Positions 4,141-34,830 of a stretch of 35,074 nucleotides of DNA are shown one piece after another. The DNA comes from Jimgerdemannia flammicorona. Its lineage: Eukaryota. Under the pieces are notes generated by a model. The model was not told the DNA's origin and searched no databases. It was given only the letters and a program-made list of their open reading frames with translations. The stretch is from the NCBI GenBank assembly GCA_003990765.1, contig RBNJ01000262.1, forward strand, positions 1 to 35,074, given 5' to 3'. The translations under genes and the position numbers were made by a program. The first letter of the stretch is position 1; every line of letters begins with the position of its first letter.

Positions 4141-4556
4141 GGATAGCAGTAAATTGCTATAAAAGAGGTAGCAGCACATTTGGAAAAGACATAGCAGCAA
4201 GGTTGTGGCTGATTCAAAATAACATCATAATTTTATTATTAGTATTTGGTAACAGCATGATCTTTTGAGTGTTAGAATTATTTTGATTCAGAAATAATTC
4301 TCATACTATATAATTCAAAATAATGTTATTTTGAACCAAACAGGTCCTTAATAATATAGAAATTTTTAATAATTTTTAAATAAAATTATTTAGTTATCAA
4401 TCAATAGTATTTTGAGTTATAAGTATATAAAGAATCTGAACTTTATTTTCCTCTAATGCATTAATGGTGGGGTAATTATAAAGCGTGAGGTGTCATGTGA
4501 CAACGTGACGATTTGGTAATCCCTGTTTACTTCCCCCCTTGACTTTGAGAATAACC

Positions 4557-10778: not shown

Positions 10779-11267
10779 TGTGTGTTTGTTTTTTTTGGGG
10801 GGGTGAGGGGTGAATTGGATTTGTCGTTTAAGGGGGGTTGAATCGGAGAAGATCCAAGTTGAGATTTATGGGATGGAAATTACGCCCAGGACTTGCCGTG
10901 TTAGTGCAGGCGGGCGGGCGTAGATGCAGGCATGTGACGGAGCTCGCTCCGGCCTAGCCACCTTTTTCGGGAGGCAGCTGCACCCGCAGGGCCCAGAAAG
11001 GCCAGGACTGCCCGTGGTGGCGCGACCGGCACGCCACGAGAAGGCTTCGACGCATAGGCACAGGGTATTAGGTAGGCCAAGAATATCTTGTGTCATATAT
11101 TAAAAGAGCAAGGGCTATGGGAGCTATTTTTATAAACAGCGTCGTGGGTGACTGCCCAATCCTCGACCCCTTTATGAACGAGCAACAAGAAAACAAAAGC
11201 TCTCCCCCGCTAGACCCACCCCATCCCATCCCTATCGACATACCATCACCGCCCACCCACAACCATA

Positions 11268-12975
11268 ATGCTCAACGAGCTACCAGGACAACCCTCCTTT
11301 CTTTCCCCACTCTACACTCCGCGTCCCTCGGACGGCACGGTCCGACGCCCCCCCCGTGTCTCGCCAAAGTTGTTCGACGACGACACCGACACCACCTTCC
11401 GCCGGCGGCGAGACGACGACGACGACGACGACGCGCTTCAGATCATGACCCTCGGCAAGTCCGGCGAAGGCAAGAGCAGCCTGCTGAACGCGATCCTTGG
11501 TGACGACGCATTTCAGGCCAAGATATCTGTATCGGTAAGTAATAGTCCATACCTCATGAACACGGGCTGCGGCATATCTGATGCCGAATAAAATATATAC
11601 GTGTGTACAGTGCCCTTTCTGTCTTTCGCTCGATCCAGCTGAACCAAAATAAATCGCTTGTTTTATCCCCCACCACAGGAGGTGACGAAGGCTGTGGAGT
11701 CACACAGTGGCCGTTGGCTTGGACGACCGGAACATACAGCGGTCAAGTGCGTTGACACACCCACACTCGCCGGTCAGCTGGGCGACCGGGCGAGAGTGGC
11801 GCAGATCGGTAACCTTTTGGAGGCTTGTTTGAATGGTGTGGACGCGTTTCTAATTGTGACCAAAGTCACGCACTATCGGTAGGTACTTGCGTATTTTTGA
11901 ATTAGTATATATTATATTTATCGGAGAAGGGAGAAATTCCTTTTTACGGTTAATAAACAAGTATTTTTTATTTATAGCTTGAGCTGCTTTGAGGATTTGT
12001 TATTATTACTCACTCCAACGAATACTGTCTTGCATGTTTATTTATTAATCCTTCAGGTACGACTCCTCCATCCACGCAACCCTAAAAGTCTACGAGACGA
12101 TCCTCAACCCTTCTTTTTGGCAAAATGCGATCCTAGTGTTTTCCCACGCTGACCCAGAAACCGCCACCTCCTGGTCCGACTCACAACGTCACTTTGACGA
12201 CTTTGCCGCACAAATCGCCAAACAATTCAAGCTCACGACTCCCCCGCCTATCTGCTTCGCCTCGGACCGCCGCAGCTTTGGCAAGACTTCCGCAACGGCG
12301 GGCGGGATCGGCAACATGGGCGCACGGGGCGAGATCATCGTCCACGACGGCACACGGATATGCACGATAGAACCCCCAGCGCGTACGCTCTACGAGAGGA
12401 TCCGCGAGTTTCACACCCGCCCCTACTTCCCCACACATCTCACGCAGTACCTCCATCAGAATCCGCGCCGGACTGTCGCCGATTTCGCCGAGAGGCTCAT
12501 GACGGCTGTCGAGCAGCTCGACGAGTTCCGCGAAGTCGACCGCAGCGCTCATAAGAGATCCCTCTCGGCAGCTTTGTCGCCACGCCCCTCCCTATCTTCC
12601 CAGATCTACGGCATGGGCTCTAACCCTAGCATGGCGTCGTCCATTGCGTCGTTGTCCGGTGCGTCGTCCGGTGCGTCGTCCGCTACGTCGTCCGCTACGA
12701 CGTCTGTTATATCGTCCTCTGCAAAGTGCCGCGTGCCTTGGGAGGGCAGGAACAGGCCGAGAGCCGTTAGCGCAGAGTCGTCGCCTACCCCGTCAGAGAG
12801 TGGGAGCGATCATGGCGGTGGGGGAGGCAGCGGAAGAGTCACTATGACGGCTATGGCGGGGTTGCTGCAGTTGCCCAACAGGCTGAGGCGGAGTAGTTCC
12901 GCCGTTACGTTAAGGGCGAAGGGATTGAAGAGATCTAGTACGTACCTGCCGGCGTCGACGTCGGTCGGTGTGTAG
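11268..12975 (+). CDS. AIG1/GIMAP-like (TRAFAC septin/Toc-related) GTPase, copy 1, ~461 aa, with Ser-rich C-tail; exons 11268-11534, 11679-11878, 12057-12975
   Basis: P-loop LGKSGEGKSSLLNAILG, G2 EVT, G3-like VDTPT, conserved box NGVDAFLIV...R, G4 AILVFSHAD. Canonical GT-AG introns keep the frame. Confidence 0.85.
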
Positions 12976-13556: not shown

Positions 13557-13750
13557 AATCAGGATAATTAATAATGCGAATGAATGAATGGGTACAAGAC
13601 TTAACAAGTACCATCCCGAATCGCCCCCTGCCTGAATGGCTGCTGTCCCCACGTGCCACCGCTCCTTCTACAAAAATCCGGAGGCTCAGCCCCAAGTCAA
13701 GTCACATCCCGCCCCTTACACCACTCCCCTCAGCATTACAGCCCCTCGCC

Positions 13751-14397
13751 ATGTCTGGCGCTACCTACTACAACTACTACCAGAACGACCCCAATACCCT
13801 TGTTCTGTCCGTCATGGGCGCCATGGGACGGGGAAAGTCCAGCCTACTCAACTCCATCGCTGGCGAGCAGATCTACCAAACTGGCCGCGCTGTCGAGGTG
13901 AGTACTGCGGCGCGTTGTCATTGGTAGCGCCACGTCGATTGAGGCCGGAGTTGAGGTGACAGTGGCGTGCGCATTTGCCGTATGACTGGCCGCAGCAGCT
14001 ATCGGTAGCGCGTACACTCGACGAGCGGACTTGGGCGAGGAGCTCCGTGGGTGGATCAATCTTGGTTGTTGAACACGGCGCGTGTGAGAGATCGCGGTAG
14101 CGAATGACAGCAAAGGTGACTCCTGGTCTAGCCTACTCACGCATCTCTCCATTGCTCTCTCCCTCATCCAGCCCATTACCACGCACGTCGAGTCGGTCAT
14201 CCGACCATGGCGCAACCCGCCCATCTCGCGCTTCTGCCACCTCATCGACACGCCCGGAATGTGCGACTCATCCGTGAGAGACAAGAAGAATGTGCAAGAG
14301 ATGGTTAAGTACTTCAAGAGCCTGTCGTACGGCGTGAGCGCGTTTATTCTAGTATTCAATGTGGAGGATGTCAGGTAGGTCGGGGGGGGGGTGGGGG

Positions 14398-14428
<31 letters not shown>

Positions 14429-15111
14429 ACGCATACGCGAGCTTAATCGTTGTAGATAATTCTTCAGCTCCCACTACGAGGGTAGCATGTAATTCTCCGT
14501 GGCTAAATAATTATCACGCTCACCACACTCTCTCGCACGTGAAACACCCCAGGCTCGACGCCTACACGCAAAACATGCTTCACCTCTTTGAACGCCTCCT
14601 AGGCCGAGACTTTTGGCGCTACGTGATCATTGTCTTCACGCACGTAGACGAGGACAACCGCGACCTTCTCGATGATAACATCGATGTCCTCTCCGACCCT
14701 ACGGACGGCTTCGCGGCAGAGCTTGGGCGGATCTTCGCTCTTGACCCGGCCACGGTCAAGCTCCCAACCATCTTCTTGACGACTAAGAATGTCAAGTACT
14801 CGACATACGCGCACCAGTGCCTGCAGGACCTTTACGACTCCATTCGCGTGCGCGAGGAGCAAGCCCGCGGCAAGAAGTTTTCCTGCCACTGGTTCCGCCA
14901 AATCCTTGCCACACCCTCTGACGAGGAGAAGACAGGATTTATCGTCGCTTCCGTCAGAGAAGCCGTCGGCGCGCTCAGGAACATATTTAGCAGTGGCGGT
15001 GGCGGCGGCAGCGGCGGATCATCCCAAGCGAGGACTGGGTACTCCGGGAGGGGCTCACAGCCGAGGGAGGAGAGGGGGGGTAGTGGAGGTGGATGGTGCC
15101 CGATTCAGTGA
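13751..15111 (+). CDS. AIG1/GIMAP-like GTPase, copy 2, ~302 aa, with C-terminal CaaX (CPIQ); exons 13751-13897, 14172-14374, 14553-15111
   Basis: MGAMGRGKSSLLNSIAG, G2 PITT, G3 LIDTPGMCDS, YGVSAFILVFN...RLD, G4 VIIVFTHVD, Gly-rich linker then CPIQ*. GT-AG introns. Confidence 0.9.
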
Positions 15112-16970: not shown

Positions 16971-17126
16971 ACAGTTCAAGGATTTATATGAAAACACAGG
17001 TATTTATGACATCTACTTTTGGCCATATCGTATCATGAACAAAATGTCAAAGAAGAGAAGTTGAGCATGATTGTTATATATATTTCAATCAAAGCTGCAT
17101 TACCAGCCAAACTTGTTTTCACATAA

Positions 17127-17232
17127 CAGACCTCACGTTACAGACCTCACGTTGCAGACCTCACATTGCAGACCTCATATTGCAGACCTCACATTACAGA
17201 CTTCACATTAAAGACCTAATTACAGACCTTAC
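17127..17232. repeat. 14-bp tandem repeat CAGACCTCAC(G/A)TT(A/G), ~7 copies decaying rightwards
   Basis: Directly visible at the island/AT-rich boundary. Probably subterminal repeats of the adjacent transposon remnant. Confidence 0.9.
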
Positions 17233-17235
17233 AAG

Positions 17236-18350
17236 ATGTCTCACACTTCAGAAAATTCTGCAGTCATTAAGGCAATAAGATTTTTGACCATACAAGCTAT
17301 AATATATGAAATCTATAATGATACAAAAGAGGACAAAGATAAGACTTATTATTATAATAATAGTAGCAGCAGAGATGATATCTATAACAGTAGTAACAAA
17401 TTCACAACCACTTTAAGCAAAAACCCCAACATCTTCTAACTGGACATATAATGTCCTTCTAAAGTACAATAATAAGAAATATAAAGAGATTCTATATATA
17501 AGTAGAGTTATCTTTAACAAATTAATTTCTGAGATAGAAAACTATACTGTATTTCAGAATAAGTCATCAAACTCTCAGACTCAAGTCTATATTCAAGTTA
17601 TTGTTCTGCTTAAAATCTTGATAGATTGATGATATATGTTGAACTGGTAGTTTTATTTGAAATATCTGAAAGCTCTATTGATATTTTCTATATATAGTTA
17701 ATTATAGCAATTATAGATAATCTTGGTAAAAAATATATACAGTAGTCTCAGAATGATAATTAATATTACAAAGTCTATGCTGAATTTGAATGTCTTGCTG
17801 AATTTCCCAGAGTTATTAGAGCAATTAACTGCACATATCCTATTTCAAAAGTCTCTAAAAAGTACAAAATAGTATACTAGTTAAAAAAAATAAGATATTT
17901 ACTTAATGTTTAAGAAACTATCAATCATCTTAGCTTCTTTACTAGTTATTATATTGGGTGGTCTAAATAGAAGAATATTTAATAAGTTAATTATTTTATA
18001 ATAATATAAAATACTTATATATAATAATTATATTATTAGAGATAATAGATATAAACCTTATACATTATTTCTAATCTATCTATATCTAAAACCAAAGCTA
18101 TCAAAAGATTGTCAAAGAATATTCAATAAGAAACTATCAAAAACAAGAGTGATAGTTAAATTACCTTTAGCTACTTAAAGATAAAATATATTAATTACAA
18201 AATAGTTTATTACTCAATATTGAGCTAATAATTACCTTTATTATATAAGTAAGATTTTCACATTTAATAGGTCTTTAAAACAAAGATATTTCAAAAGCTG
18301 TAGATCTTATTTAAACTACTTTTATTTTCTATAATTTTATTCAAATCACT
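17236..18350 (+). pseudogene. Second, heavily decayed Harbinger (HARBI1-like) DDE transposase
   Basis: FQNKSSNSQTQVYIQVIVLL, EFPRVIRAINCTYP (=GFP.VIGAIDGTH), FFTSYYIGWS, IIRDNRY (=GDSGY), FNKKLSKTRVIV, TFSYLK, FYNFI. Many stops. Confidence 0.7.
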
Positions 18351-18568
18351 AGTAATAGAGATGAAACAAAAATATAGATAATAAGAATATAAATAAAGAT
18401 AAGAATGAAAATATAGAAAAGAAAGATAAGAGCAAAAATAAGCAAAGAAGTAGAAAAGTGAAGGTATAAAATTCTCAGCTATATTATTATTAGTTTTTAT
18501 TCTTACTTTTTCTTTATATTAATTGACAGTTAGTTTTTAATAATCTTAATTATAAAGATCAAGATATT

Positions 18569-18906
18569 GCAGAGGAGGAAGAAGGCTCAGCGGGAGCCAA
18601 GGGAGTGAACCCAGAGCCAGTGTCAAAGCGAACAGAAGACATGTGGAAGAGCATGTATAAGGGGGATGAACAAAGAACGTAACCGAAAATGCATCAGCCA
18701 TTTATTGCCACGTAAAAACGTGGTCCTTATATACAAAATACGACATCCCAAAAGGGAGGATACGCCACAACTCGGGGCAAACTGAATTAGGAACCACATG
18801 ACTGCCGGAGATAGGCGGAGATAAAGGGGGAGCCAATCCCAGTTGCAGGATAAAAATCACAAACAAACACAAACAAAACAAATCCAAATCGAGATTAAAA
18901 AACATC
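18569..18906 (-). repeat. Inverted pseudo-LTR arm (338 bp), reverse complement of 19060-19397
   Basis: Aligned by eye; differences seen are transitions, mostly at CpG. Confidence 0.95.
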
Positions 18907-19395
18907 CTTGCCCCCTCCGGGGTCTCACGCTCACTCCGGGGTCTCGGCCTTACTCCGCTCCCCTCTGCTGCCTTCGGCCCCTCGCTTCGCTCGGGCTCAC
19001 TGCGGCTCGCTCCGTTTCGGCCTCACCCCTCGCTCGCACTCACCCCTCCGGGGTCTGCAGATGTTTTTTAATCTTGATTTGGATTTGTTTTGTTTGTGTT
19101 TGTTTGTGATTTTTATCCTGCAACTGGGATTGGCTCCCCCTTTATCTCCGCCTATCTCCGGCGGTCATGTGGTTCCTAATTCGGTTTGCCCCGAGTTGTG
19201 GCACATCCTCCCTTTTGGGATGTCGTATTTTGTATATAAGGACTGCGTTTTTATGTGGCAATAAACGGCTGATGTATTTTTGATTACATTCTTTGTTCGT
19301 CCCCCTTATACATGCTCTTCCACATGTCTTCCATTCGCTTTGACACTGGCTCTGGGTTCGCTCCCTTGGCTCCCGCTGGGCCTTCTTCCTCCTCT
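18893..19395 (+). repeat. 5' pseudo-LTR (503 bp)
   Basis: Direct repeat of 22330-22832. Includes the GC-rich hairpin cassette, TATATAAG (19233), AATAAA (19260) and the first ~24 codons of ORF1. Confidence 0.95.
19233..19265 (+). promoter_or_regulatory. Candidate TATA box (TATATAAG) and AATAAA within the pseudo-LTR
   Basis: Both motifs are present in all three repeat copies, ~90 and ~60 nt upstream of the ORF1 ATG. Function inferred. Confidence 0.45.
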
Positions 19396-20320
19396 GCTGT
19401 ACCGCCTGCCCTCGGGGCCTCCGTCCTCATCGACGAGCTCATGGATGAGGTACATACTTCCTCCTCCCCCTCCCCCTGCCTTCACCCCCGCCACTGTCTC
19501 CTTCGAGACCTACATCTCTTCTGCCATCCTTTCCCTCCCCCTGGACCTTCGTCCTTCTGGTCGTCCGCTCCTCTCTCAGTTCCGGTCGGTTCTTGCCCTC
19601 TCCGCCAAGGAGGCTCGTCTCCGTCATGATGTCGACGTCATCGCTCCGCCTGCCGTCCGCTATTCCATTCTCCCCGAGGCCTGCCACCAAGCCCTCTCCA
19701 AAGAGGTCCGTGCCGCCACTGCCACCGCCAAGCTTACTGCCGCTGATGCCGCCGCTGCTTCCACCACCACTGCTCCTCTGCCTACCTCCCCCGAGGTTTC
19801 GGTCTCCAAGGCCATCCGCGCCAAAGCTCGTGCTGCTGCTCGTGCTGAGGTTTATTCCTTCGCCACTGCCGCCGCCAAGGCCCCCTCCAAGACCCCCACC
19901 AAGACCCCCACCAAGCCCAACCAGGCTTTGTCGGCCTCTTCCTGGTCCCCCTCCCCTGCCAAGGCTTCCTCCTCCATTCCCCCTGCCCCCAAGCATGGCC
20001 GCCAACTTGGTTCTCGCCCCGTCGGGGCCTGGCCTTGTGCTGTCTGCTCCGGTCGCCTCCACCATGCCTACTGGCATCCGGCCAAGTCCGTCTGTCCTCA
20101 TGGTGGTGTTCCTCATGCTGCTGCCCCTTCGGCTGCTTGCTCGCCTTCAGCCTCCTCTGCTGGTTCTTCCTCCGCCTCTTCTCCCTGTGCCCCTGAATGT
20201 AAGGGCTGCACGAAAGCCTGTGGCTGCAAGGTCTGGCACTCTGATGGGGTGTGCTCTCATTCGTCGAGTTCGCCACCTTCAAAAAAAGTCAGAGGGAAGG
20301 GGAAGGCCTCCTGCTCTTAA
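19324..20320 (+). CDS. PLE ORF1: Ala/Pro/Ser-rich, basic, with C-terminal Cys/His clusters (putative Zn/nucleic-acid binding) and NLS-like PPSKKVRGKGK
   Basis: Long open frame 19280-20320. The likely start ATG 19324 (MSSIRFDTGSGFAP...LIDELMDEV) is in another frame, implying a frameshift near 19455. Motifs CAVCSGRLHHAYWH..VCPH and CAPECKGCTKACGCKVWH..VCSH. Confidence 0.65.
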
Positions 20321-22335
20321 ACTTCCCCCTAGCATGGTTCTCCCCCGGTGTCCCCGTCCCTTCTCGGATTCCGTCGTCACTTCTGGTGCGCCCTGAGTGG
20401 TTCCTCATATTGTCCCCCCTTTGCCTTTCCCAGTTGCTTGTCCCAAATTTTCGAGTTTACTCTTCTCTTAGAACACTTTTGTCTCTTCCTTTTTCTTCGG
20501 CTGACTGCCCCCTTTCTCCCCTTCAAGTCTTTGCCTTATTCTTGGGTCCTCGCTTTGTTTTTCCTGCAACTCCCTCACAATTCTCCTTCACCGATCCGGC
20601 TCGTCTAACACGTTTTCATCGTGCTCTTGACCTTGCCATTTTCTTTCAAGATCGCGGTGAGATGCCCTCTCGCTATTTTGTTCCTAGCAATTGGGTCCCC
20701 CCTCCCAATGTCTCTTCACACTGCGTATTCCTCGACATGGCTTGCTCACTGTCCATTCCTGGATGAGCTCGCTCTTGCTTGGTTTCGGACTGTGCCGTGC
20801 ATACCGCGCTTAAATCGGTCAAGCAATTGCCTATGCACTTGCTCACAGTCACTGATAAGAATCAGGGTTTTGCACTTATTCCTAAGTCGCTCTACCTTGA
20901 TGGCCTTTCTGCCCTCCTTCGAGCCACGGCTTACGAGCCTAGTGCTCTTGGATTGGATGAGGTTCTCACTCTTCTTCAGGTTTCTCTGGCTCACACTAGA
21001 TCACTTTCGGATTCCCCATTCGCGAACCCTGTTTTTAACTTCTTCCAGGACTCTTTGTCCTCCCCGGATATTTCTCTTCTGGTTTTCTATGCTCTTCCTA
21101 AAGTTCATAAGCCTATTTTGGCTTGGCGTCCTATTACGGCTGCTTACAGTTCTCCTACTACCGAGATTTCGAAGTGGTTATCCCGCTTCTTTCTCTCCTG
21201 GATGGCTCTCTTACAACACCATCTTGGGCCTGAGTATACTATTCTTCGCGATACTCAGGAGCTCGCCCTTCTCTGCTCCACCATTGTGCCTGTTCATCAC
21301 TTTTCCCATTTGGCCTCTGGTGACTTCTCTTCCTTCTATACTGCTATTCGTTTTGATGAGATCGATGATTGCCTTCGCTTCTTGGGTTCCTTGGTTTTTC
21401 CTTTGGATTCCTCGGTTTCGCTGGCTTCTATTGTTGAGCTTACGCTTCTCGTCTGCAGCTCCAATTATTTTGAGTCGGCCCTTGGCTCCTTTCACCAGAC
21501 TTCTGATATTGCCATGGGTACGAATTGTGCCCCCACCCTTGCCAACCTCGTTGGCCTGGCCCACGAATTGCATACGTTACGTGATATTACTTCACCTCTT
21601 TCCATTGCATTCTGGGCTGGGGATATCTTCTTTCGCCGATACATTGATGACTTTATTGTCTTCGCTGTTGCTGGTGTTGATATCCCTAGTATGTTCCTGG
21701 GCGTCTACCCTCTCCACCATTCTATTACCTGGGTGTGTGGTATGACTAGTATTCTCTTTTTGGACCTTTCCATTTCTCTTTCTCCTTTCCGAACTGTTGT
21801 TTATTCTCGTTTTCCCCGTTCCCAACAGTTCCCTGACTTCTTGTCCAACCATCCTTGTCACACTCTTCTTGAATGTGTTTGGGGTGAGGCTCATCGTCTT
21901 GCACTATGCTGCTCCCGTTGTTCGGATTGGGTGTCTGCTGTTCGGGTTCTTGGCAACTTCGTAGTCCATCGTCGTGCCTACCCTATTTCTATCGTTCGCG
22001 ATCTGCTTGCTTCTGTTGAATGGTCTGTTGTTCGCTCTACCCTTCTCTCTCCTCTTTATCTCCCCTCCCTTCCCTCTCTCCCCCCTTACCCTCTCCGTAC
22101 CCCCTCTTCTTTCCCACCCCCGATTCTCGTTATATCATTTGATCATGCTCGCTGGGTCGCTCAATGCCCTGATACCGTCCTGTGCTCTTCTCTTTCACAC
22201 CATGGACTTTCATCTCTTTCCCGACGCCCTCTGATTGCTCATTTGCATCTTCCTTCTGTTTCTTCTTCAATCCATCGCTCTCGTTTTGCATTTTCGTCAC
22301 CTTCTGGTGCCTCCGGTTCTGCCGGAGAGGATTAA
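20251..22335 (+). CDS. Penelope-type reverse transcriptase (ORF2), no GIY-YIG domain, one in-frame TGA at 20764-20766
   Basis: ORFs 20251-20766 and 20779-22335 share a frame. PLE motifs: LFLGPRFV, SNWVPP, TDKNQG, FYALPKVHK..AWRPI..SPT, GDFSSFYTAI, Q..IAMGTNCAPTLANL, RYIDD, FLDL, SNHP, and linker P.IAH..LPS..HRS, followed by a stop. Confidence 0.92.
20281..20330 (+). promoter_or_regulatory. Candidate -1 programmed ribosomal frameshift signal
   Basis: A-AAA-AAA is in the correct ORF1 phase (TCA AAA AAA), followed by a stem GGGGAAG (20299-20305) / CTTCCCC (20322-20328). ORF2 is -1 relative to ORF1 and has no ATG in the overlap. Confidence 0.6.
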
Positions 22336-22832
22336 AAAACATCCTTGCCCCCTCCGGGGTCTCACACTCGCTCTGGGGTCTCAGCCTTACTCCGCTCCCC
22401 TCCGCTGCCTTCGGCCCCTCGCTTCGCTCAGGCTCGCTGCGGCTCGCTCCATTTCGGCCTCACCCCTCACTCGCGCTCACCCCTCTGGGGTCTGCGGATG
22501 TTTTTTAATCTCGATTTGGATTTGTTTTGTTTGTGTTTGTTTGTGATTTTTATCCTGCAACTGAGATTGTCTCCCCCTTTATCTCTGCCTATCTCCGGCG
22601 GTCATGTGGTTTCTAATTCGGTTTGCCCTGAGTTGTGGTGCATCCTCCCTTTTGGGATATCGTATTTTGTATATAAGGACCGCATTTTTACGTGGCAATA
22701 AACGGCTGATGCATTTTCGGTTACATTCTTTGTTCGTCCCCCTTATACACACTCTTCCATATATCTTCCGTTTGCTTTGACACTGGCTCTGGGTTCGCTC
22801 CCTTGGCTCCCGCTGGGCCTTCTTCCTCCTCT
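22330..22832 (+). repeat. 3' pseudo-LTR (503 bp)
   Basis: Direct repeat of 18893-19395. The RT stop codon (22333-22335) lies within its first stem arm. Confidence 0.95.
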
Positions 22833-23649
22833 ATTTTTACTTTGAAGTAAGTGATCACTACTATTCAAGGTAGTGAAAGAGTTAGAATTATAATTATAAT
22901 TAGTAGTATATAGACTACTACTATGAAGATAGATATTTTTATAGTTATTAAATTATTTATAACTTAGAAAAATCAGCTAAATTAGTAAACTAACTTGAAA
23001 GTTTTTGATATATACATATTATCTGTAACTTTCTATATTCTATATATATTTTTCATTTTTAATTATCAGTATAGTCATATGATATATAAGCTGTAATATA
23101 TTGTAAATTCTATTCAAGTAGAGAATATAGAGCCTATAGTAAAGAAAAAGTAAGTTAAAGAGGACTAATTTAAATACAATGAGCTGAATCAGATAGAAAT
23201 AAGATATAGTGAGATAGTGTAAGATGAGGTAAAAGTAATAATATAAAATAATAGAGGTGATGAGATGAGATTGAAAAGTAGTAAAACAGACTACTAGATA
23301 ATTATTCTAAACTATCAAAGAATTATAAGCTATATTTTAAATATAAAACAAAATATATGAACTACTAGATCAGATAATTATTACTAAAACTATTATAGTA
23401 TTATTAACTAGTACTGGTCTTTTTTGTAGCTAAGAACCTTTAGTATCTAAATAATCTTGCTCAGTATTTTCTTTATACTTTTTCTAAAAAAAATATCATT
23501 ACTCAACTTTAGATCTAATGTATCTCTAAATATCTCTCTACTAGTTTTTCAAATACTATTAGTTTTTTTTAGAATATATTACTAGCTAGGTCCAGTAGTA
23601 ACAACTCTGTAAATATAATTAAAATCTATATCATTCTATTTATATTTAT

Positions 23650-25237
23650 TGTCACATAGTAGTTGCTGAGTCTTTCAAATATATCAGATTCTCTCCAAGA
23701 TATATCTCTTAGACTAATCTCAAGTTTGTTATAAGCAAGTTCTTATTGAAGTACCTTTCCAAGATCTTATAGTCCTCAAACTTCTTATCTTTAAAGTATC
23801 CTATTATTTCTTAGATTGTTTACATAGAATTGAGAGTAAGTGAACTGGAACTGACTTTATTTTAAAGGAAATAAGAAGGGTATTTATACAAAATATAATT
23901 CAATGATTGCTAAGTTATAAAGCTAAATATAAATTTCAATAACCAAACAAAATACTGGAATATAGAAAACTATAGTTGTCCATATAAATAGTTATATAAG
24001 TTTAGGATAGTAGTAGAATTTCAGTAGTATAGAAAAAGAATATCAGAAGAATTTTAAGTTACATAAGATCAGAATATCAGAAAAATAACAATTATATAGA
24101 AAAAGGATACTGGTAGAATCTGATGTTACTAAGAACTTAGAGCAGAAAGTTCAGAACTATAGAGGCTTTATCTTTATCACTATTAAGACTAGAGATTAGA
24201 GATAGGATGTCTTTGAAGAAGATGAGGTCTGTAAATATTTTGTCTATTTTGCATACTTTACATATCTCATATATGTCATGCAGGATGATGTCATCACTAA
24301 TAATATTATCACATTCAGTAGCAGTGAGAACAAAGAGGTCTGGGGCTCTCCAATCTATGATATTCTCTTCTACAAAATAAGAAATAAATGTAGGGTCTTA
24401 GAGAGATCTAACCTAGATACTGGGGCCTTGGAATTCTGAGATCAATTATTGTAGAAATTGATCTGGGTTGTTCTGGAAGATGGGATACCAGAAGTCTTCT
24501 ACTTCATTACTATTGAGGGTGATAGTAGACTGAGTCTCTGTGGCCACTATGGTCTCCAGTACATTAGTATAGCAGGCAGACAGTTTCTTGAAGTCTAAGA
24601 TTCTAGTATACTCTAAGTTGGAGATTAATCATAGTGCATGCCAGAAGATCTGATAAATCTTCTTTACTATCCTTATTTTATATATATCCATGGAGATAGC
24701 ATCTTGAATCTCCTGAAGACTGGCTTGAGGAAACTTCTGACAGAAGAGGTTTCTTATTTCATACTTTTGCTATATCTAGAGATATTCAGTAGTGATGGTG
24801 ATCCTTGTTTCCATTTCATAGTAATAGAGGATATAATGATAGGGGTTACCAGTATCTAGGTTGATGTTAGGAGTCCTTCTTGTATAGGTCCCTATGACTC
24901 TTCTGATGTCTTGGAACATCTTATCCTAGACTGAGGGGTCTTGGTGATTTCTGGATCTTAAGGTTTGGCAAGTGGTAGGCATTTTGTTTATAGTAAGTCT
25001 TTAGAACTATGTATTTCTGTGAGCTTTATTTGGATTGCTACTACTATAGTTTCTTGATCCTTCTTTTATATTTCTCAAGATGTCTGTCTTGTAGTCATAA
25101 TGACTCATGGTTGGTCATTATTACTTATCTTATAGCTCAGATGAGTTATGCTATATAATCTTCTTGTACTCTGATCTGGTAGTATAAGGAAAGGCTGTCT
25201 TCTGTACTGATATCATTATTCTGAGGTCACTATTACA
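23650..25237 (-). mobile_element. Solo LTR copy A of a Gypsy family (~1.59 kb)
   Basis: In element orientation TGTAATAG...GTGACA; 4-bp flanks TTAT/TTGT; homologous to copies B-D. Confidence 0.8.
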
Positions 25238-25313
25238 TTGTTTTTATTAATAGTATTATATCAGTAATAATTTTTCTATTATATAAATAATATTTATTAG
25301 TTAATATATATAA

Positions 25314-26914
25314 TATAACAGTAATCTTAGAATAGTAATATTATCATAGAAGATAGCCTTTCCTTATAAGCTATCAATTAAAGTATAAGAAGATTATATA
25401 GCATAACTTATCCAAGCTATAAGATGAGCAATAATGACTAACTATGAGTCATGAAAACCATAAGATAGACATCTTAAGGAATATAAAAGAAGAACTAGAA
25501 AACTACAGTAGTAGCAACTCTAATAAGACTTATAAAAACTTAAAATAGTTCAAAAGACTTATTATAAATAAAATGCCTATCACTTACTAAACTATAAGGT
25601 CCAGAAACTACCAAGGCTTCTCAGTCTAAGAAAGGATATTCCAAGACATCAGAAGAGCTATGAGGATCTGCACTAGAAGGATTTCTAGTCTCAATCTGGG
25701 TACTAGTGACTCTTATTACTTTACTCTCTACTACTATAAAATAGAGACAAGGATCACTACTACTATTGAATATCTCTAGATATAGCAGAAATATGAAATA
25801 GGAAATCTCCTCTACTGAAAATTCTCTCAGGCCAGTTCCCAAGAGATACAAGATACTACCTCTATAGATATATATAAATTGAGAGTAGCTAAAAAGATCT
25901 ATTAGATCTTCAGATATACATCTTAGTCAATTCTCAACTTAAAGTATACCAAAGTCTCAGACTTCAAGAAATTATCAGCTTACTACAAAATATACTAGAA
26001 GCCATAGTGGCTACAGAAGCCCAATTTACTATTACTCTCAAAAGTGATGAGGTAGAAGAGTTCTGAAATCCCATCCTTGAGGACAATCCAGATCAATTCT
26101 TATAAGGATTAATCTCAGTATTCTAAGGTCTCAGTATCCAGATCAGATACCCTCAAGATTTCACCTTTTTTCCCTACTTTGTGAAGAAAAATATCATAGA
26201 TTAGAGAACTCCTGATCTCCTTTCCACCACCATCAAATATGATGATGTCATCAGCAATAATATCATCCTACTAATTGATATTTGTGAAATGAATGAAACA
26301 GAAATATTTACTGATCTTATTTTCTTTAAAGATATTCTGTCTCTGACCTCTAGTCTTAATGATAGTAATGAAGATAAAGTCCCCAGAATTCTAAATATTC
26401 TACTCTAATTTGTTTATATAACTATTTTTTTGAACACTTGAATATTCTGATATCTTGATCTCATATAACTATCAGAAATTATTTCAATATTCTGATCTTG
26501 TGCAACTGATTGTACAGGTACTTAAATTTATACTTATAATCTGATATTTCCTATATTCAAATATTTTATTTAGTTATTGAATTTTATATTTAGCTTTATA
26601 TCTTAGTAATTATTGAATTATATTCTATATAAATACCCCTCTTATTTCTTTTAAAATAAAGTTAGTATTAAAAACACTCAAGCATTCAAGTACTCAACTA
26701 TTCAAAAGTACAAAAGTTCTAGTCCTCTATTCAATTCTATGCAAGTAAATCCAAGAAACAATAGAACAGTTTAAAGATAAGAAGTTTGAAGACTATAAGA
26801 TCTTGAGAAAGTACTCCAATAGAACTTACTTATAAGAAACTTATAGTTGGTCTAAGAGATATATCTTGAAAAGAATCTGACATACTTGAAGAACTCAGTA
26901 CCTACTATATGACA
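25314..26914 (+). mobile_element. Solo LTR copy B (~1.6 kb)
   Basis: TATAACAG...ATGACA (decayed TGTAAC...GTGACA) with a perfect 4-bp TSD ATAA (25310-25313, 26915-26918). Confidence 0.82.
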
Positions 26915-27345
26915 ATAAATAAATATTATTAAAGAATTTTGAATCTTTTGATCTTATTCTCATATATCTTGAAATAATTCTTTAAGAGAAAAAAGTGTCT
27001 GTATAAAATCTCTATAGATATTATTTTACTTGATCTCAAAGATACATATAAATAAGTTGGTCATCATTACGTTTAGTTACTTTGAAATCAATATAACTAT
27101 ATTCTTTATCACTATTTACATATTGCTCTAGATATAACTCTATACTAGTAACTATTATTACTACTATTAGCAAGATACTACCAATAAATTGAGTATGAAT
27201 TATTTTATTTTTATGAGCACTTATTGTGATAAGCAAATAGTATAATATAGCTAGAGATGTAAACTTCTAGCATAGCATAGTTACTCATGACTACTATACT
27301 TATAATTAGTCAGGATACCAAATCAGAGTTATTTATCTATATTCT

Positions 27346-28270
27346 GAGGACATACTTATGTTTGACAGATACACTTATGTCTTGCAGATATACTTATATC
27401 CTACAGATATACCCATATCCTATGAACACACTCAAACATTACTAGAGATAGTAAATTTATAATTATCCAGATAGCAATCAGATAGTAACTATAATATATA
27501 AAATACTTCAGAGATAAGAGTGAATAAATCTCAATCTAAATTGAAGTATAAACTAAAGAAGCCTCTAAAGATTGAGCATTGGTCTCCTTTTCCCACTTTG
27601 GTCTACTTTCTAATATAAAGAACAAGTCTGTTTTTGATTCACTTGCTAGATAAGTCTAAAGAATCTGAGAAATCTACCAAGTTCAAGGAAGAACTTTACC
27701 ACTATTTGAATAATCTGTTACTTAAGAAATAAGCTACCATTTTTAAAAAAAAAAGTCTGTCATCTTATCACCAAAGTCAGTCTGTTGATACAACTTTATA
27801 GTAGAGCCAGTCTATTAACATAACTATATATAAACAAAGTTAGTCTTGATACAACTTTGCTCAAGAAGTCTGCCATTCCCAGAGAACCCATAAGAAACCT
27901 TACTATAAGTCGGTCTTCTGATATAACTTCACAGTAAAGCCAGTCTATGATATAACTCTGTACAAATGAAGCTAGTTTTTGATATAACTTACTAAGAATC
28001 TATGATATCTAAGTTATCTAAGTTATTCAAATTATCTGCTCTCTGAGTTATTCAAATTATTCATACTATCTGAGTTATTTATCTATTCTTAGTAAGCCTA
28101 ATTCAGAAGAATTTACACTATCTGATATTTCCAGAAGAACCAATTCAGAAAGAATCTGCATCATTTGAGTTATCTAAGTTATCTGTACCATTTAAGTTAT
28201 TATTCAAGAAGTATACTGATTTAGAAGAATCTATACCAAACTAAGTTATTCACTAAATCAAGTTATCTAC
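27346..28270. repeat. Degenerate tandem repeat arrays in unclassified decayed DNA
   Basis: ~19-bp unit CAGATACACTTATGTCTTG (~27346-27430), repeated AGTCT..GATACAACTT units (~27775-27990) and GAGTTATC/AAGTTATT units (~28005-28270). Confidence 0.55.
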
Positions 28271-29173
28271 CAAATTGTATAAAGAAGTCCACCAAGATCA
28301 TTATGCTAAAAATTGTATACTTTTGGAGATCATTGTGCTATATAGAGATTGTCTACTACTCAAGAAAGAAACTGCTAAATTGCTAGATTATTCTATATAA
28401 GAAATTCTGTCATACTATACTAAATTATCTATTATATCAAATCACTACTATATCTAGTTCCAATAAGGAAATCAATACCATTGTATTCAGACTTGACTAT
28501 TATACTGCTAAATACTAAGAACCTCAGGAATTTTAGAATATTTTATTGCTTTTTGACAAAGTAACTAAAGGCTCAAGCCAAACTATATTAACCCCCAATC
28601 TTATAATTTATCTCTATTGAGCCAGGTACATATATTACACTATACTAAATCTACAATTTTTATCTAAAATAATAATTTAGAAATAATTAATTATATATAA
28701 AATAATACAATCTTATATAAAAGCAAAATATATATATCTTAATATTATTTATATAATGAGTAAAATTTTTATTTTTTTTTTATCAATTATTATAGTATAT
28801 ATAATATAATATATTAATAATAAATATAATATTTCTTCCAAAATAAAGAACTGATATTATAATATCAGTTAGCAGTAAATATACTCTACTTTATATCACA
28901 ATTATAAATATTATTAAAAATATAAATTTATATCCAAATTAAAAGTAAGTATATATTTAATATTATTAGTAATACTATTTTTTATCAAGAATATAGATAG
29001 GTGATTTCTCTTATTACTTAAAAATAAGTACTTCTTAACTAATTCTAAAAAATATAAAAGGATATATTATATATATATATAATGAGTATATATTTCTACT
29101 CTATATAAAATCTTTATTTTTTATTTAAGATATAAAATCTTTATTATTATCTAGAATATATATATATTATTAT

Positions 29174-30707
29174 TGTAATAGTGACTCCAGAATGATGATA
29201 TCAGCACAAAAGACAGCCTTTTCTTGCAAGCCACCAGATTAGAGCACAAGAAGATTATACAGCATATGAGATGAGCAATGATGACCAACTGTAAGTCATT
29301 GTGACTATAGTATAAGTATTCTAAAGAATATAAAAAAAGGATCAAGGAACCACAGTAGCAGCAACCAACAAGAACCACCAATCCCAAAATAGCTCAAATA
29401 CTTACTACAAATAAAATGCCTGCTGCCCACCAAACCTCAAGGTCAAGGAATCACCAAAGTATCTTGGTCGAGGAAAGGATGTTCTAAGACATTAGAAGAG
29501 CCATGGGGACCTGCTCAAGAAGGACTCCTAGTGTCAACCTGGGTACTGCAGACTCTTATCACTTCATTCTCTACTACTGTGAAATGGAAACAAGGATCAC
29601 CATTGCTAATGAATGCTTCCAAATATGGTAGGAGTACAAAATAGGAAACCTCCTCTGCTGGGAGTTCCCACAGGCCAGCACCCAAGAGCTACAAGATACC
29701 ACTCCTATGGATATATGTGAAATGAGGACAGCTAAGAAGATCCATCAGATCTTCAGGTATATACCATGGTTGATCCCCAACTTGGAGTATATCAGAGTCT
29801 CAGACTTCAGAGACCTATCATCCCACCATATCAATGCACTAGAAGCCAGGGTGGCTACAGAAGCCCAGTCCACTATCACCCTCAACAGTGAAGAAGTAGA
29901 AGACTTCTGGCATCCTATCCTTCAGGACAACCCAGACCAATTCCTGCAAGGATTGATCTCAGTATTCCAAGACCCAAGCATCCAGGTTAGACCTCCCCAA
30001 GACTCCACATTTATTCCCTATTTTGTGGAAGAGAACCTCATAGACTGGAGAGCTTCAGATCTTGTTCCTGATTTCCCCGCCAAACATGATGATGTCATTG
30101 GTGATAACATCATCCTGTGCGATATATGCAAAATATGTGACCTACACAATAAGTTCGCAGATCTCATCTCCTTCAGTGATGATGATGATGAGGATGAAGC
30201 TCCCATGGTCCTGAACTTTCTGCTCTAAGTTCTTTGTTACACTGAATAATGCCAGCACCAGTATTCTCATGTAACACTGGATAATACCAGTACTGGTATT
30301 CTGAGATAATGTGAAATTGTTCCAGCATTGGCATTTTGATGTGACACTAAATAATGCCAGCATCCTGAACCTGTATAACCATCAGTGCCAGCCCTGGAAC
30401 TTAGTAGTTTTAGTTATTGGAATTTATATTTAGCTTTATATCTTAGCAACTATTGAATTATATTCTGTATAAATACCCCTCTTATTTCCTCTGAAATAAA
30501 GTCAGTTTCTCTTAGTACAATACACACACTTCCTTACAAGCAATCTAAGAGATAACAAGACAGTTAAAGATAAGAAGTTTGAGGACTATAAGACCTTGGG
30601 AAGGTACTCCAATAAGAACTTGCTTATAACAAACTTGAGTTAGTCTAAGAGATATACCTTGAAGAGAATCTGGTATATTTGAAGGACTCAGTGACCACTA
30701 CATGATA
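29174..30707 (+). mobile_element. Solo LTR copy C (~1.53 kb), least decayed
   Basis: TGTAATAG...CATGATA, flanked by TTAT (29170-29173, 30708-30711); TATAAATA at 30468, AATAAA at 30495. Confidence 0.82.
29416..30228 (+). pseudogene. LTR-encoded ORF of unknown function (~270 aa; two premature stops in this copy)
   Basis: ATG 29416 is in frame with the 173-aa ORF 29707-30228. The first stop (TAA) is CAA in sister copies. The homologous frame is recognisable in all four LTRs. Confidence 0.7.
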
Positions 30708-32312
30708 TTATATAGTGAGTGCTGAGCTCTCCAAGTATATCAGATTCTCTTCAAGATATATCTCTTAGACCAACTACAAGTTTCTTATAAGTAAGTTCTA
30801 TTGGAGTATCTTCTCAAAGTCTTATAGTCCTCAAAGTTCTTATCTTTAAACTGTTTTATTGTCTCTTGGATTTACTTACATAGAATTGAATAGAGGACCA
30901 GAACTTTTGTGCTCTTGAGTAGTTGGGTACTTGAATACTTGAGTATTTTAATACTGACTTTATTTCAAAGGAAATGAGAGGAGTATTTATATAAAATATA
31001 ATTTGATAGTTACTAAGATATAAAGCTAAATATAAAATCCAATAACCAAATAAGATATTTGAACATAGAAAACTTCAGATTGTAAGTATAAATTCAAGTA
31101 TCTGTACAATTGATTATATAAGATCAAAATACTGAAATAATTTCTGATAGTTATACAAAGTCAGAGTGCTAGAATATTCAAGTATTCAAACAAATAGTTA
31201 TATAAACAAATTAGAGTATAATGTTCAAAATTCTCAAGGCCTCATCTTCATTACTATCATTAAGACTGGAGATTAGAAATAAGATATCTTCAAAAGAAAT
31301 AAGATCAGTGAGAATTTCTGTAAGCATTTTATTCATTTTGTATATATTGATTAGCAAGATAATGTCATCAACAATAATATCATCATGTTCAGCAGTAGTG
31401 ATAAGGAGATCAAGGGCTCTCCAATCTATGATGTTTTTCTCTACAAAGTAGGGGACAAAGGTGGGATCTTGAGGGGGTCTGATCTGGATACTGGGGCCTT
31501 AGAATACTGAGATTAATTCTTATAGAAATTGATCTGGATTGTCCTGGAGAATGGGATTCTAGAACTCTTCTATTTTATCACTTTTGAGAGTGATGGTAAA
31601 TTGGACTTCTGTGGCCACTATGGCTTCTAGTGCATCTGTATAGCAGGCTGACAATTTCTTGAAGTCTGAGACTCTGGTATGCTCTAAGTTGGAGATTGAC
31701 TAAGATGTATATCTGAAGATCTGATGGATATTTTTAGCTACTCTCAATTTATATATATTAATAGAGATATTATCTTGTATCTCTTAGAGACTAGCCTAGG
31801 GGAATTCCCAGTAGAGGAGATTTATTATTTTATATTCCTACTATATTTAGAGGTATTCAGTAGCAATAGTGATCCTTGTCTCTATTTTACAGTAGTAGAG
31901 AGTAAAGTGATAAGAGTTACTAATACCCAGGTTGAGACTAGGAATTCTTCTGGTGCAGGTCCTCATGGCTCTCCTGATGTCTTGAAATATTCTTTCTTAC
32001 ACTGAGAGACCTTGGTAGTTCCTGGACATTGAGTTTGACAAGTGGTAGGCATTTTGTTTATAGTGAGTCTTTTGAACTATTTCAGAGTTTTATAAGTCTT
32101 ATTTGAGTTACTGCTACTGTAGTTTCTTGGTTCTTCTTTTATATTCCTTGAGATATCTATCTTGTGGTCATTATGATTCATGGTTTGTCATCATTACTTA
32201 TCTTATAGCCTGGATGAGTTATGCTATATGATCTTCTTGTGCTCTGATCTAGTAGCTTATAAGGAAAGACTCTCTTCTGTGATGATATCACTATTCTGAG
32301 ATCACTATTATA
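30708..32312 (-). mobile_element. LTR copy D = 3' LTR of the adjacent Gypsy element
   Basis: Homologous to A-C. Preceded on the minus strand by the purine tract AGGAAGAAGA (32322-32313) and pol remnants. Confidence 0.85.
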
Positions 32313-32322
32313 TCTTCTTCCT
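32313..32322 (-). other. Polypurine tract (PPT)
   Basis: AGGAAGAAGA abuts the start of the 3' LTR. Confidence 0.65.
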
Positions 32323-32329
32323 GAATAAG

Positions 32330-34830
32330 AATCTTCTCTTATATATCCTTATTTATTGATCTAGACTGAAAAATTTTCTGATTCCATAACCTCTAACAGT
32401 AGGTCAAAAAGTGGAGTTTATAGGCTGATATCTTTTTTATATATTTTGGCATAATGGTGAAGAGTAGCTCCTTTCATATAGAATAAGAGCCTGATTCTGA
32501 TCTTAATTAATCAGTTGATAGTTCAAACTTCTCTAGCTTCAAAAGTCTTATAAATTAGTAGTTGCTAATACTGTATTCCTTAGAGAATAGTCTAGATGGA
32601 TTGCCTGCTAGTTACAGAACATACTGTTATGATTTGCAGACTAGAACTTTATAGGCAGTTATTATATTTTACTTCTCTTATATAGGTTCATAGTACTTCT
32701 TGAGTCTGTTCCTATATACCATAGTAGATAGTATGATCTTTGAGAGATTTCTAAGCTAGAAGATAGTTTTCTTGATATCTTATATATAAAAGAATCTTTT
32801 CCATTTAGGCTCCAGTTTTTATAACTATGAGACTTCATTCATATTTTGATATAATAGGACCTTTTCTCTAATTTGGATGAGTTCTAGGGTCTTGTGATTC
32901 CTTTCTACATTCTTTTCTTATTAGTACTTATGACTTGGATGTAATCTTCTGCCTTCTTCCTGATTTGGTATAGTCTCTGGATTTCTGAGTCAATCTGTCA
33001 CTAAGTTAGATCTAGATTTATGGCTGAAGTTCTATCAGAATCTTCTTCTCCAAAGAGTAGTTCTCTTAGAGTAAAGTATATACTCTGTGACTATATATCT
33101 TATAGAATAGAGAGGATAGTTGGGAGGTAGTTATCTCAATTCTCATATGTATCTAAGATCTTGACCAAGATGTTCTTGAAGGTTTTGTTGGTTCTTTCTA
33201 TCTATCTATTTCCTTGAGAGTGATATGTGGTAATCTTGATATACTGAATTTTGTATTTCTGATATATTATCTTATAGGAATCTATTGACAAATTCTATAC
33301 TATAGTCTGTGGTGATTTGCCTTGATATCTTATAGCAGCAGATGATTTCTTGGTATAAAAAGTTAGCAATAGAGAGAACATTGGTTTCTTATAATACTCT
33401 TGCTTCTATCTATTTAGTAAAGAGATCTACAATAACTATAATATAGCAGCTTCCTAATAAAGTTACTGATAGTAGTCTAATAATGTCTATTGCAATGTAG
33501 TAGAAGAGGATAAGTTCAATTCTTGATGACCTGGATATCTGGTTTTGCTGATCTTATTTCTGTTTTTAGTACTTATCACACCTTTTGACAAATTGATACA
33601 GGTCTTCTTTTATCTTAGGCCACTATATGGTTTTTTTTGTCTTATTATATATATTGATTCCTCCTAAGTATACTTGTTCATATACTTTCTTCATTACTTG
33701 ATACTTTTTATATTTAGATATAATAAGCTTTTCTCCTTTTCTGAGTATAGTGTTATTTAGTTTGAATTACTTCTAAGTCTGATTGATGATAGTGATAGTC
33801 CAGAGTTCAAGATGGTTGAGTATCTTTTGCTGCCCAAGATAGCTAATTAATCTATAGTATAGCTCCTTATTTTTGTTGAATAGTCTTGATAGAGGTATTT
33901 TAGGGTATTCTTGAAAGTATATCAGTATTGGCATTAGTTCTTTCTGAGTGGTGTTTGACAGTATAGTCATACTCTTGCAATCTGTAGATCTATCTGATAG
34001 AGGTTCAAAGTGTAGAATAGCTAGGTGAGAGCAGAATGGTCCATTTGAATAGTGAAGTATTTTCCAACTAGGTAGTAGTGGAACTTGTCTACTACTCAGA
34101 CTACTGTTAAGTATTTAAGCTTATATGTCTTATAGTTTTGTTCTGCTCTACAGATACCTCAGCTTATATAAGAGATGACATATTCATATCTATCTTTCTT
34201 CTGAGCTAATACTGCTCCAAGTCCTATAGTACTTGTATCTATCTATAAGATGAACTAGGTTTCAATCTAGTTTTTTAAGAATAAGTGCTTAGATCAACTT
34301 GGTCTTGAGTTTATTGAAGTTTTCTTAATATTCTATAGTCTATTCAAACTTGATCTTCTTCTTCAGTAGCTCATAGATAGGTGCTACAATGTTGGAGTAT
34401 TCTTTGATTAATCTTCTATAGTAGGAGGCTAGTTTAAGGAAGATATGGACTTCTATAGTTGTTCTGAGTCTTGGGTAGGCTGCAACAGTCTCAATCTTCA
34501 TAGGGTCTATATGAATTCTAGTCTGATTGATAATGTATCCTAGGTAGATGATTTCTTGAGCTACAAACTTATACTTCTTGAGCTTAATATAGAGACTATG
34601 CTCCTTAAGCTTCTTGAGAGCTAGCTATATATAGTTAATATATTCTTATATAGTATTACTGAAGATAATTATATCATTAATATAGACAAAGAGCTATTTT
34701 CCAATTTCATTGCTGAAGACTCTATTCATTATTTACTGAAAACTTGCTAGGGTATTGCACATTCTAAATAGCATTTATAGGTAGATATAGATAGTATCAG
34801 ATATGATAAAGGCTGATTTCTCACTAATAT
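32330..34830 (-). pseudogene. Decayed Ty3/Gypsy pol (RT-RNase H-integrase order), 5'-truncated
   Basis: EKSAF...MLFRMCNTLASFQ*IMN...FVYINDIIIFS (RT, decayed YIDD); LASYYRRLI; VDKFHYYLVGKYFTIQMDHSAL (RH); LGGINN...WPKIKEDLYQFVKRCDK (Zn finger); IAIDII...IVDLFTK and YHSQGNR*IERTNKT (integrase core); LEPKWKRFF (GPY/F-like). Confidence 0.9.

Follow-up and report, generated by a model that had tools for sequence, protein, structure and literature searches.

A 35,074-nt stretch of contig RBNJ01000262.1 of Jimgerdemannia flammicorona (assembly GCA_003990765.1), referred to here as the window, was found to contain a copy of a Penelope-like element (PLE) at positions 18572-22831. The analysis confirmed that this copy is a broken PLE with two open reading frames (ORFs) and without a GIY-YIG domain. 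An earlier note on this DNA had placed the element at 18569-22832; the core ends lie at 18572 and 22831, and the bases beyond them, three at the left end (18569-18571) and one at the right (22832), are microhomology. The element forms a G+C-rich, pyrimidine-skewed block within AT-rich, CpG-depleted DNA, with a CpG observed/expected ratio of 0.73 within the element, and of 0.16 and 0.02 in its flanks.

Terminal repeats and reading frames of the element

The direct and inverted pseudo-long terminal repeats (pseudo-LTRs) described in the earlier note were recovered, and overlap the start of the coding region, as is characteristic of PLEs. The 5′ pseudo-LTR (18893-19394, forward strand) comprises a hairpin, a promoter-like part, and the first 24 codons of ORF1, and the 3′ pseudo-LTR occupies 22330-22831 on the same strand. 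The two direct repeats, compared over 18893-19395 and 22330-22832, are 93% identical. Upstream of them lies an inverted arm (18572-18906, reverse strand), a reversed distal part of the pseudo-LTR, whose terminal base is that of the right end. Over 18569-18906, corresponding to the distal 338 bases of the repeat, the inverted copy is 95% and 93% identical to the two direct copies, and the arms of the window copy have diverged by about 5%. Because the repeat opens with a hairpin that has a 14-bp stem, the left end of the element is a palindrome centred on the hairpin loop. The hairpin spans 181 nt (18893-19073, forward strand), with a perfect stem formed by 18893-18906 and 19060-19073, and a structured loop of 153 nt; its folding energy of -62.6 kcal/mol (z -4.0) was matched by none of 200 shuffled sequences. 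An origin of the palindrome as an assembly or amplification chimera was ruled out, given the divergence of the arms and the recurrence of the centre at one position 138 times in the genome.

The loop carries a 13-nt motif (18981-18993, forward strand) that is common to a sister family in the same genome, and was found in 70 of 76 loops with a pattern tolerant of CpG decay. The cDNA strand of this motif contains GCGAAGC, a very stable DNA mini-hairpin. A putative TATA-like motif (19233-19240) and a putative AATAAA motif (19260-19265), both on the forward strand and upstream of ORF1, were recognized from the sequence alone. An Rfam scan of the element gave two chance-level matches and no hammerhead match, and the hammerhead core CTGAnGA was absent from either strand of the window repeats, a search that a non-canonical ribozyme would escape.

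The upstream Cys/His-rich ORF1 described earlier was confirmed (19324-20320, forward strand), with its start corrected to the ATG at 19324, inside the 5′ pseudo-LTR. In intact copies, ORF1 encodes about 405 amino acids from the ATG in the 5′ repeat to a common stop, which is reached in 17 of the 23 copies whose start was located (30 loci). The encoded protein begins with a Pro-rich part, continues with Ala-rich helices and two Cys/His knuckles, and closes with a basic tail. The translation of the window copy retains both knuckles (20036-20101 and 20198-20260, forward strand), and its frame is damaged by a 4-nt insertion (19451-19454) and by the loss of about 225 nt near 19746-19767. The second knuckle weakly matches ORF1 of the sister family. 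No Pfam match to ORF1 was obtained, a word-indexed protein search yielded no homologue, and an Atlas search returned one unnamed cluster (0.79). A fold model from two sequences was helical and of low confidence (pLDDT 42).

ORF2 lies in the -1 frame relative to ORF1, with which it overlaps, and no conserved ATG was found ahead of its N-terminal motifs. An A-AAA-AAA slippery heptamer (20281-20287, forward strand), followed by purine/pyrimidine stems, lies within the overlap in register for a passage from ORF1 into ORF2, and is kept in all 74 distinct contexts. The hairpin after the heptamer was no more stable than those of shuffled sequences, and a four-copy consensus fold downstream of the slippery site showed almost no covariation. 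We infer from this arrangement that ORF1, together with an ORF1-reverse transcriptase (RT) fusion, is probably produced by -1 ribosomal frameshifting.

ORF2 (20245-22335, forward strand; 696 codons from stop to stop) contains the N-terminal motifs of PLEs, the DKN motif (20854), YALPKVHK, an RT domain with YIDD (21640), the thumb, and a short linker. It ends at a stop codon (22333-22335) inside the 3′ repeat, and the window copy is interrupted by a premature TGA (20764-20766). The structural model (pLDDT 85.6) had telomerase RTs as its best structural matches, whereas a sequence search of the PDB gave no match. Relatives of ORF2 numbered 1875 at E≤0.001, GIY-YIG-bearing RTs among them. ORF2 thus combines an RT related to those of PLEs and telomerase with the DKN motif and the thumb that mark a PLE. 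A tyrosine-recombinase element of the DIRS type was considered and rejected, as Pfam detected neither a recombinase nor an RNase H, and the telomerase-like RT fills the ORF2 model.

The earlier claim that the RT frame ends after the thumb and linker without a nuclease was borne out. Endonuclease-bearing (EN+) PLEs (Penelope/Poseidon, Neptune, Nematis, Hydra, Naiad, and Chlamys) carry a GIY-YIG domain C- or N-terminal to the RT. Neither Pfam nor a PLE-endonuclease profile detected such a domain in either ORF, although the profile identified 11 other proteins in a set of 154. The possibility raised alongside that claim, that other copies carry the nuclease, was not borne out: all 64 ORF2 copies scored, from 1333 candidates, fit the same nuclease-less frame with 86-100% identity, and 11 of them have no internal stop. 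Because ORF2 stops at one common position in the copies sampled, the absence of the nuclease is a trait of the family, rather than a deletion in the window copy.

Family members, relatives and known systems

Exact-pattern searches of the 231-Mb genome found 209 slippery sites, 138 palindrome centres, and 599 terminal motifs; these counts are lower bounds, and the family has at least 209 copies. The layout was resolved around 40 of the 138 centres, a sample that comes from the largest contigs and by design contains only loci with a centre. Single elements with the hairpin loop in the sense orientation accounted for 27 of these, single elements with an antisense loop for five (one of them complex), and head-to-head dimers for another five; three were neither or were cut off. 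Several variants were seen. In two loci (L084 and L097), the hairpin is missing entirely from the 3′ repeat, as would follow from a jump of the RT across the hairpin base. In L085 and L097, the arm and the 5′ repeat are of one haplotype and the 3′ repeat of another, pointing to a jump between RNAs or to later recombination. A solo form, a palindrome of two terminal repeats to which no ORF is joined, occurs at L090 and L111. One soil metagenome run has contigs that span the element; its independence is uncertain, and it was not used as support. No RNA data set was listed as containing the element.

The sister family has an RT that is 42% identical to ORF2, and shows almost no DNA similarity to the window family. 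It includes a hairpin-centred, 9-kb head-to-head dimer, and shares with the window family the two-ORF organisation, the 13-nt loop motif, and a Cys/His knuckle; at the position of the slippery site stands an A-AAA-AAC heptamer, with the stop of ORF1 after it. Its loci are L161 and L159 (G000:C2487) and L158. A third family in the genome (L141, L142, and L143) has a single ORF and is of the Coprina type; its member L143 ends in CCCTAA repeats, yet is internal to its contig.

An RT tree was built from 135 of 153 RTs, all unnamed or partly named, with SH-aLRT support only; 18 RTs that failed a motif cut, including the closest match, P0003, and a Puccinia RT, are outside it. The window and sister families group together (SH-aLRT 98), and next with a Racocetra protein and two unnamed ones (99); the enclosing group (99), to which a Stenamoeba protein also belongs, is without endonuclease. 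GIY-YIG-bearing RTs and the family ending in CCCTAA branch elsewhere, over an unresolved backbone. As regards the distinct lineage suspected earlier, the RT falls in a well-supported group separate from the Coprina-type family of the same genome, which is the comparison that this tree affords, as published Coprina, Athena, and TERT sequences are not part of it. None of the 14 tree neighbours and enclosing-group members (a 13-row clade and P0003) carries GIY-YIG. Metagenome locus scans for the relatives P0003 and P0004 confirmed nothing, and the architecture is known from this genome alone.

Several known systems each share part of this architecture. Coprina elements, including Coprina-1_Alen of Ascochyta lentis (PMC13159263), likewise have a fungal host, a PLE RT with DKN and thumb, no endonuclease, and direct terminal repeats, and Coprina-1_Alen also has a helical ORF1 and a separate RT ORF. 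It differs in being located at chromosome ends, between telomeric repeats, in 13 copies of one orientation, whereas the window family has more than 200 dispersed copies, a hairpin-centred inverted arm, and head-to-head dimers. Of the features that characterize Coprina, the family thus shows the missing endonuclease, while 3′ telomeric repeats, a telomeric location, and a hammerhead were not found. The layout is that of the EN+ Penelope/Poseidon elements of animals, such as Pen2a_Av of Adineta vaga (PMC3846280), which likewise has two direct pseudo-LTRs and an inverted one. The inverted and direct copies overlap there by some 15 bp, against 14 in the window family; the pseudo-LTR includes the initial codons of the ORF and a TATA-like motif, and partial tandems occur. 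The window family differs from it by its lack of GIY-YIG, by its two ORFs, and by the absence of an 8-10-bp target-site duplication (TSD); that of Pen2a_Av is 9 bp (PMC3846280). In the same report, endonuclease-deficient PLEs of fungi and protists are said not to share the Penelope layout, which the window family does.

Athena elements of bdelloid rotifers (PMC8557442) are likewise without an endonuclease (EN-minus), and have an ORF1 that is separable from the RT ORF by a pseudoknot frameshift. The window family resembles them in its two ORFs and in a layout suggestive of frameshifting, but Athena attaches to telomeric overhangs via complementary repeats and carries hammerheads, neither of which was found here. 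PLE-X elements of Chara braunii and Selaginella, and the shrimp element MjPLE01 (PMC8557442), are EN-minus and occur away from telomeres, with the Chara families spread genome-wide; PLE-X differs in belonging to the Chlamys clade, with a CxC linker, canonical hammerheads, and non-fungal hosts. EN-minus PLEs are described as generally restricted to chromosome termini, and both the completion of PLE integration and the inverted structures are described as undefined (PMC8557442). No dispersed fungal EN-minus family with this layout was found in the literature covered, with subscription papers, Repbase, and supplements lying outside that coverage. Each ingredient has precedent; the combination contradicts the printed generalisation.

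Insertion sites and the mode of spread

The element was said to lie inside transposon debris, and both flanks indeed belong to one old AT-rich, CpG-depleted repeat. Its left part (18150-18571) and its continuation on the right (22832-23000) are collinear in the paralogues L120, L121, and L123. In L123, the flanks are contiguous with about 2 extra bases, corresponding to a gap of 2 at the window copy, and because of this contiguity no duplication accompanies the insertion. The earlier statement that there is no TSD therefore holds for the window copy, but not as a rule for the family, as four of 43 pairs of element ends have long target duplications (about 252, 296, 878, and 1006 bases, 98% identity). 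Paralogous empty sites, found for 14 of the 43 paired elements, revealed gaps of 0, 0-1, 2, 2, 3, 5, 9, 11, 15, 23, 77, and 219 bases, and duplications of 297 and 879 bp. Short TSDs, for which 31 pairs were compared with shuffled pairs over a span of 40 nt (long duplications were sought separately), were no more frequent than in the shuffled pairs, and the short duplication expected of an EN+ PLE was thus not seen. The spread of gaps and duplications is unlike the trace of one nuclease with fixed geometry.

The junctions were studied in a set of 98 distinct, non-internal cases from 70 loci; a few of these junctions join other element pieces. The core end is reached at 86 of the 98, most often with 0-1 extra bases and, in the tail of the distribution, with up to 7, and base counts outside the 98 junctions revealed no target consensus. 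Arm ends (24) and 3′ ends (32) have the same terminal base and the same spread of microhomology. Furthermore, 17 of 50 core-reaching ends continue for at least 2 bases into ORF1-type sequence, where about 3 are expected from the flank composition. The likeness of the two kinds of end, and their continuation into ORF1-type sequence, suggest that reverse transcription starts internally, at a fixed site. Internal initiation has been shown in vitro for the EN+ lizard PLE PAc (PMC11167929).

The reported lack of telomeric repeats at the junctions was confirmed and extended. TTAGGG is the telomere repeat of this genome, and arrays of it mark contig ends elsewhere; no TTAGGG or CCCTAA array is present anywhere in the window, no telomeric dimer occurs in the 70 loci, an element end followed by CCCTAA repeats had no match genome-wide, and no PLE lies near the telomere repeats of 14 loci (9 of them contig-terminal). 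The family is dispersed, with no telomeric repeat at the sampled ends.

Taken together, the junctions lend support to the earlier suggestion of integration at internal breaks, and we consider it somewhat probable that the family is an autonomous EN-minus PLE that spreads in chromosome interiors by priming on pre-existing DNA 3′ ends. Reverse transcription would begin internally on the RNA, at a single fixed position some 70 nt into ORF1, with base pairing to any available 3′ end over 0-4 (up to 10) bases as an aid, and both ends of a break or gap would be extended. One end would usually be extended to full length, with a template jump rebuilding the 5′ pseudo-LTR. The other end, if extended to the hairpin only, would give a single copy with an inverted arm, and, if also extended to full length, a head-to-head dimer. 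The two cDNAs may then anneal via the 14-bp inverted repeat, followed by fill-in. Blunt or trimmed breaks would leave no TSD or small deletions, and widely staggered 3′ ends would produce the duplications of 250-1000 bp. Two-ended priming is consistent with a loop in either orientation (27 sense and 5 antisense among 32 single elements), and the sister family argues for the same scheme, since it keeps the hairpin, the dimer, and the slippery site despite almost no DNA similarity. More tentatively, a dedicated system for bridging any chromosomal break or replication gap might have taken the place of the endonuclease as well as of telomere targeting, the conserved hairpin with its 14-bp stem and 13-nt loop motif serving as a programmed joint. 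A precedent exists in endonuclease-independent and twin-primed LINE-1 insertions (PMC11702581), in which existing ends are used, two extended ends are joined, and target deletions or duplications result; these are an occasional outcome of an endonuclease-bearing element, whereas in the window family this would apparently be the normal route, with a built-in joint.

Several observations weigh against priming at both chromosomal ends, most of them in favour of a fold-back scheme. In that scheme, which we regard as unlikely, the cDNA self-primes at the 14-bp stem, and the resulting free hairpin or palindromic DNA is captured by end-joining at breaks; insertion would still be nuclease-independent, but the left junction would not be made by reverse transcription on the target. 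All four full dimers tested carry one haplotype on both arms, which fits fold-back at least equally well, and the arm of L085 and that of L097 match the 5′ repeat instead of the 3′ one. Sense loops strongly outnumber antisense ones (27:5), the hairpin is stable, and self-priming was suggested as the origin of palindromes of this kind in rotifer Penelope (PMC3846280). End-joining of finished DNA also gives blunt joins, small deletions, and microhomology. On the other hand, the short arm would have to halt exactly at the terminal base, though the template runs on into ORF1, and target duplications of 250-1000 bp are unexpected from the ligation of finished DNA into a break. Antisense loops also exist, although they could stem from later inversion or from assembly.

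Distinctly less probable is a supply of priming ends by a nuclease, be it that of a partner EN+ PLE, a LINE endonuclease in trans, or a cryptic activity of the Cys/His part of ORF1. Such a nuclease would account for over 200 interior copies with the exact layout of an EN+ Penelope; ORF1 is uncharacterised and without a reliable fold, and the assembly contains 34 GIY-YIG matches. However, the 12 of these loci that were examined all lack an RT and CpG depletion, with several matches per contig, and one PLE-endonuclease query of the genome found nothing, LINE-type nucleases not having been searched for. The 14 tree neighbours and enclosing-group members also lack GIY-YIG, and junctions that range from a 219-bp deletion to a 1-kb duplication without a short TSD differ from the 8-10-bp TSDs of rotifer EN+ Penelope. 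The clusters of GIY-YIG frames at L067-L078, which show no CpG depletion, are probably organellar introns.

That the family is an ordinary telomere-priming Coprina, with copies made internal by rearrangement or break healing, is very improbable and largely refuted: its RT is related to fungal EN-minus RTs, a two-ORF Coprina exists (PMC13159263), and the assembly is fragmented into 35,354 contigs that leave the chromosome position of most copies unplaced, but no telomeric repeat was found in the element, in the loci of the 98 junctions, or genome-wide beside an element end, the 14 telomere-repeat loci hold no PLE, the copies interrupt collinear targets, and the CCCTAA-ended family of this genome is a different, single-ORF one.

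Hundreds of stereotyped interior insertions in a family without a nuclease allow the role of the RT and its RNA to be told apart from that of the nuclease, and the naturally open ORFs make the integration step testable. The family also bears on the action of telomerase-related RTs at internal breaks. If the bridging of breaks by priming on free 3′ ends is true, RT and RNA alone would make the hitherto unexplained tandem and inverted structure of all Penelope elements, and the family would offer a naturally occurring relative of telomerase able to seal breaks inside chromosomes.

Other features of the window

Downstream of the element, positions 23600-32330 hold a single kind of repeat in about four decayed copies, some direct and some inverted; they are 72-91% alike, and the DNA there is nearly CpG-free. 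A minisatellite with a 14-bp unit and 8.4 copies lies at 17119-17233. Two neighbouring genes (11072-12975 and 13568-15111) encode P-loop GTPase motifs, the second with weak Pfam matches of the AIG1/dynamin type. A lipase-like gene with introns occupies 4509-5817, its best match being an Endogone alpha/beta hydrolase (51%), which marks the host as an Endogonales-like fungus. Near the left end of the window, a 132-bp inverted repeat accompanies a decayed frame (3163-3435 and 3470-3901), which we take to resemble a PIF/Harbinger transposase, a similarity that Pfam did not confirm.

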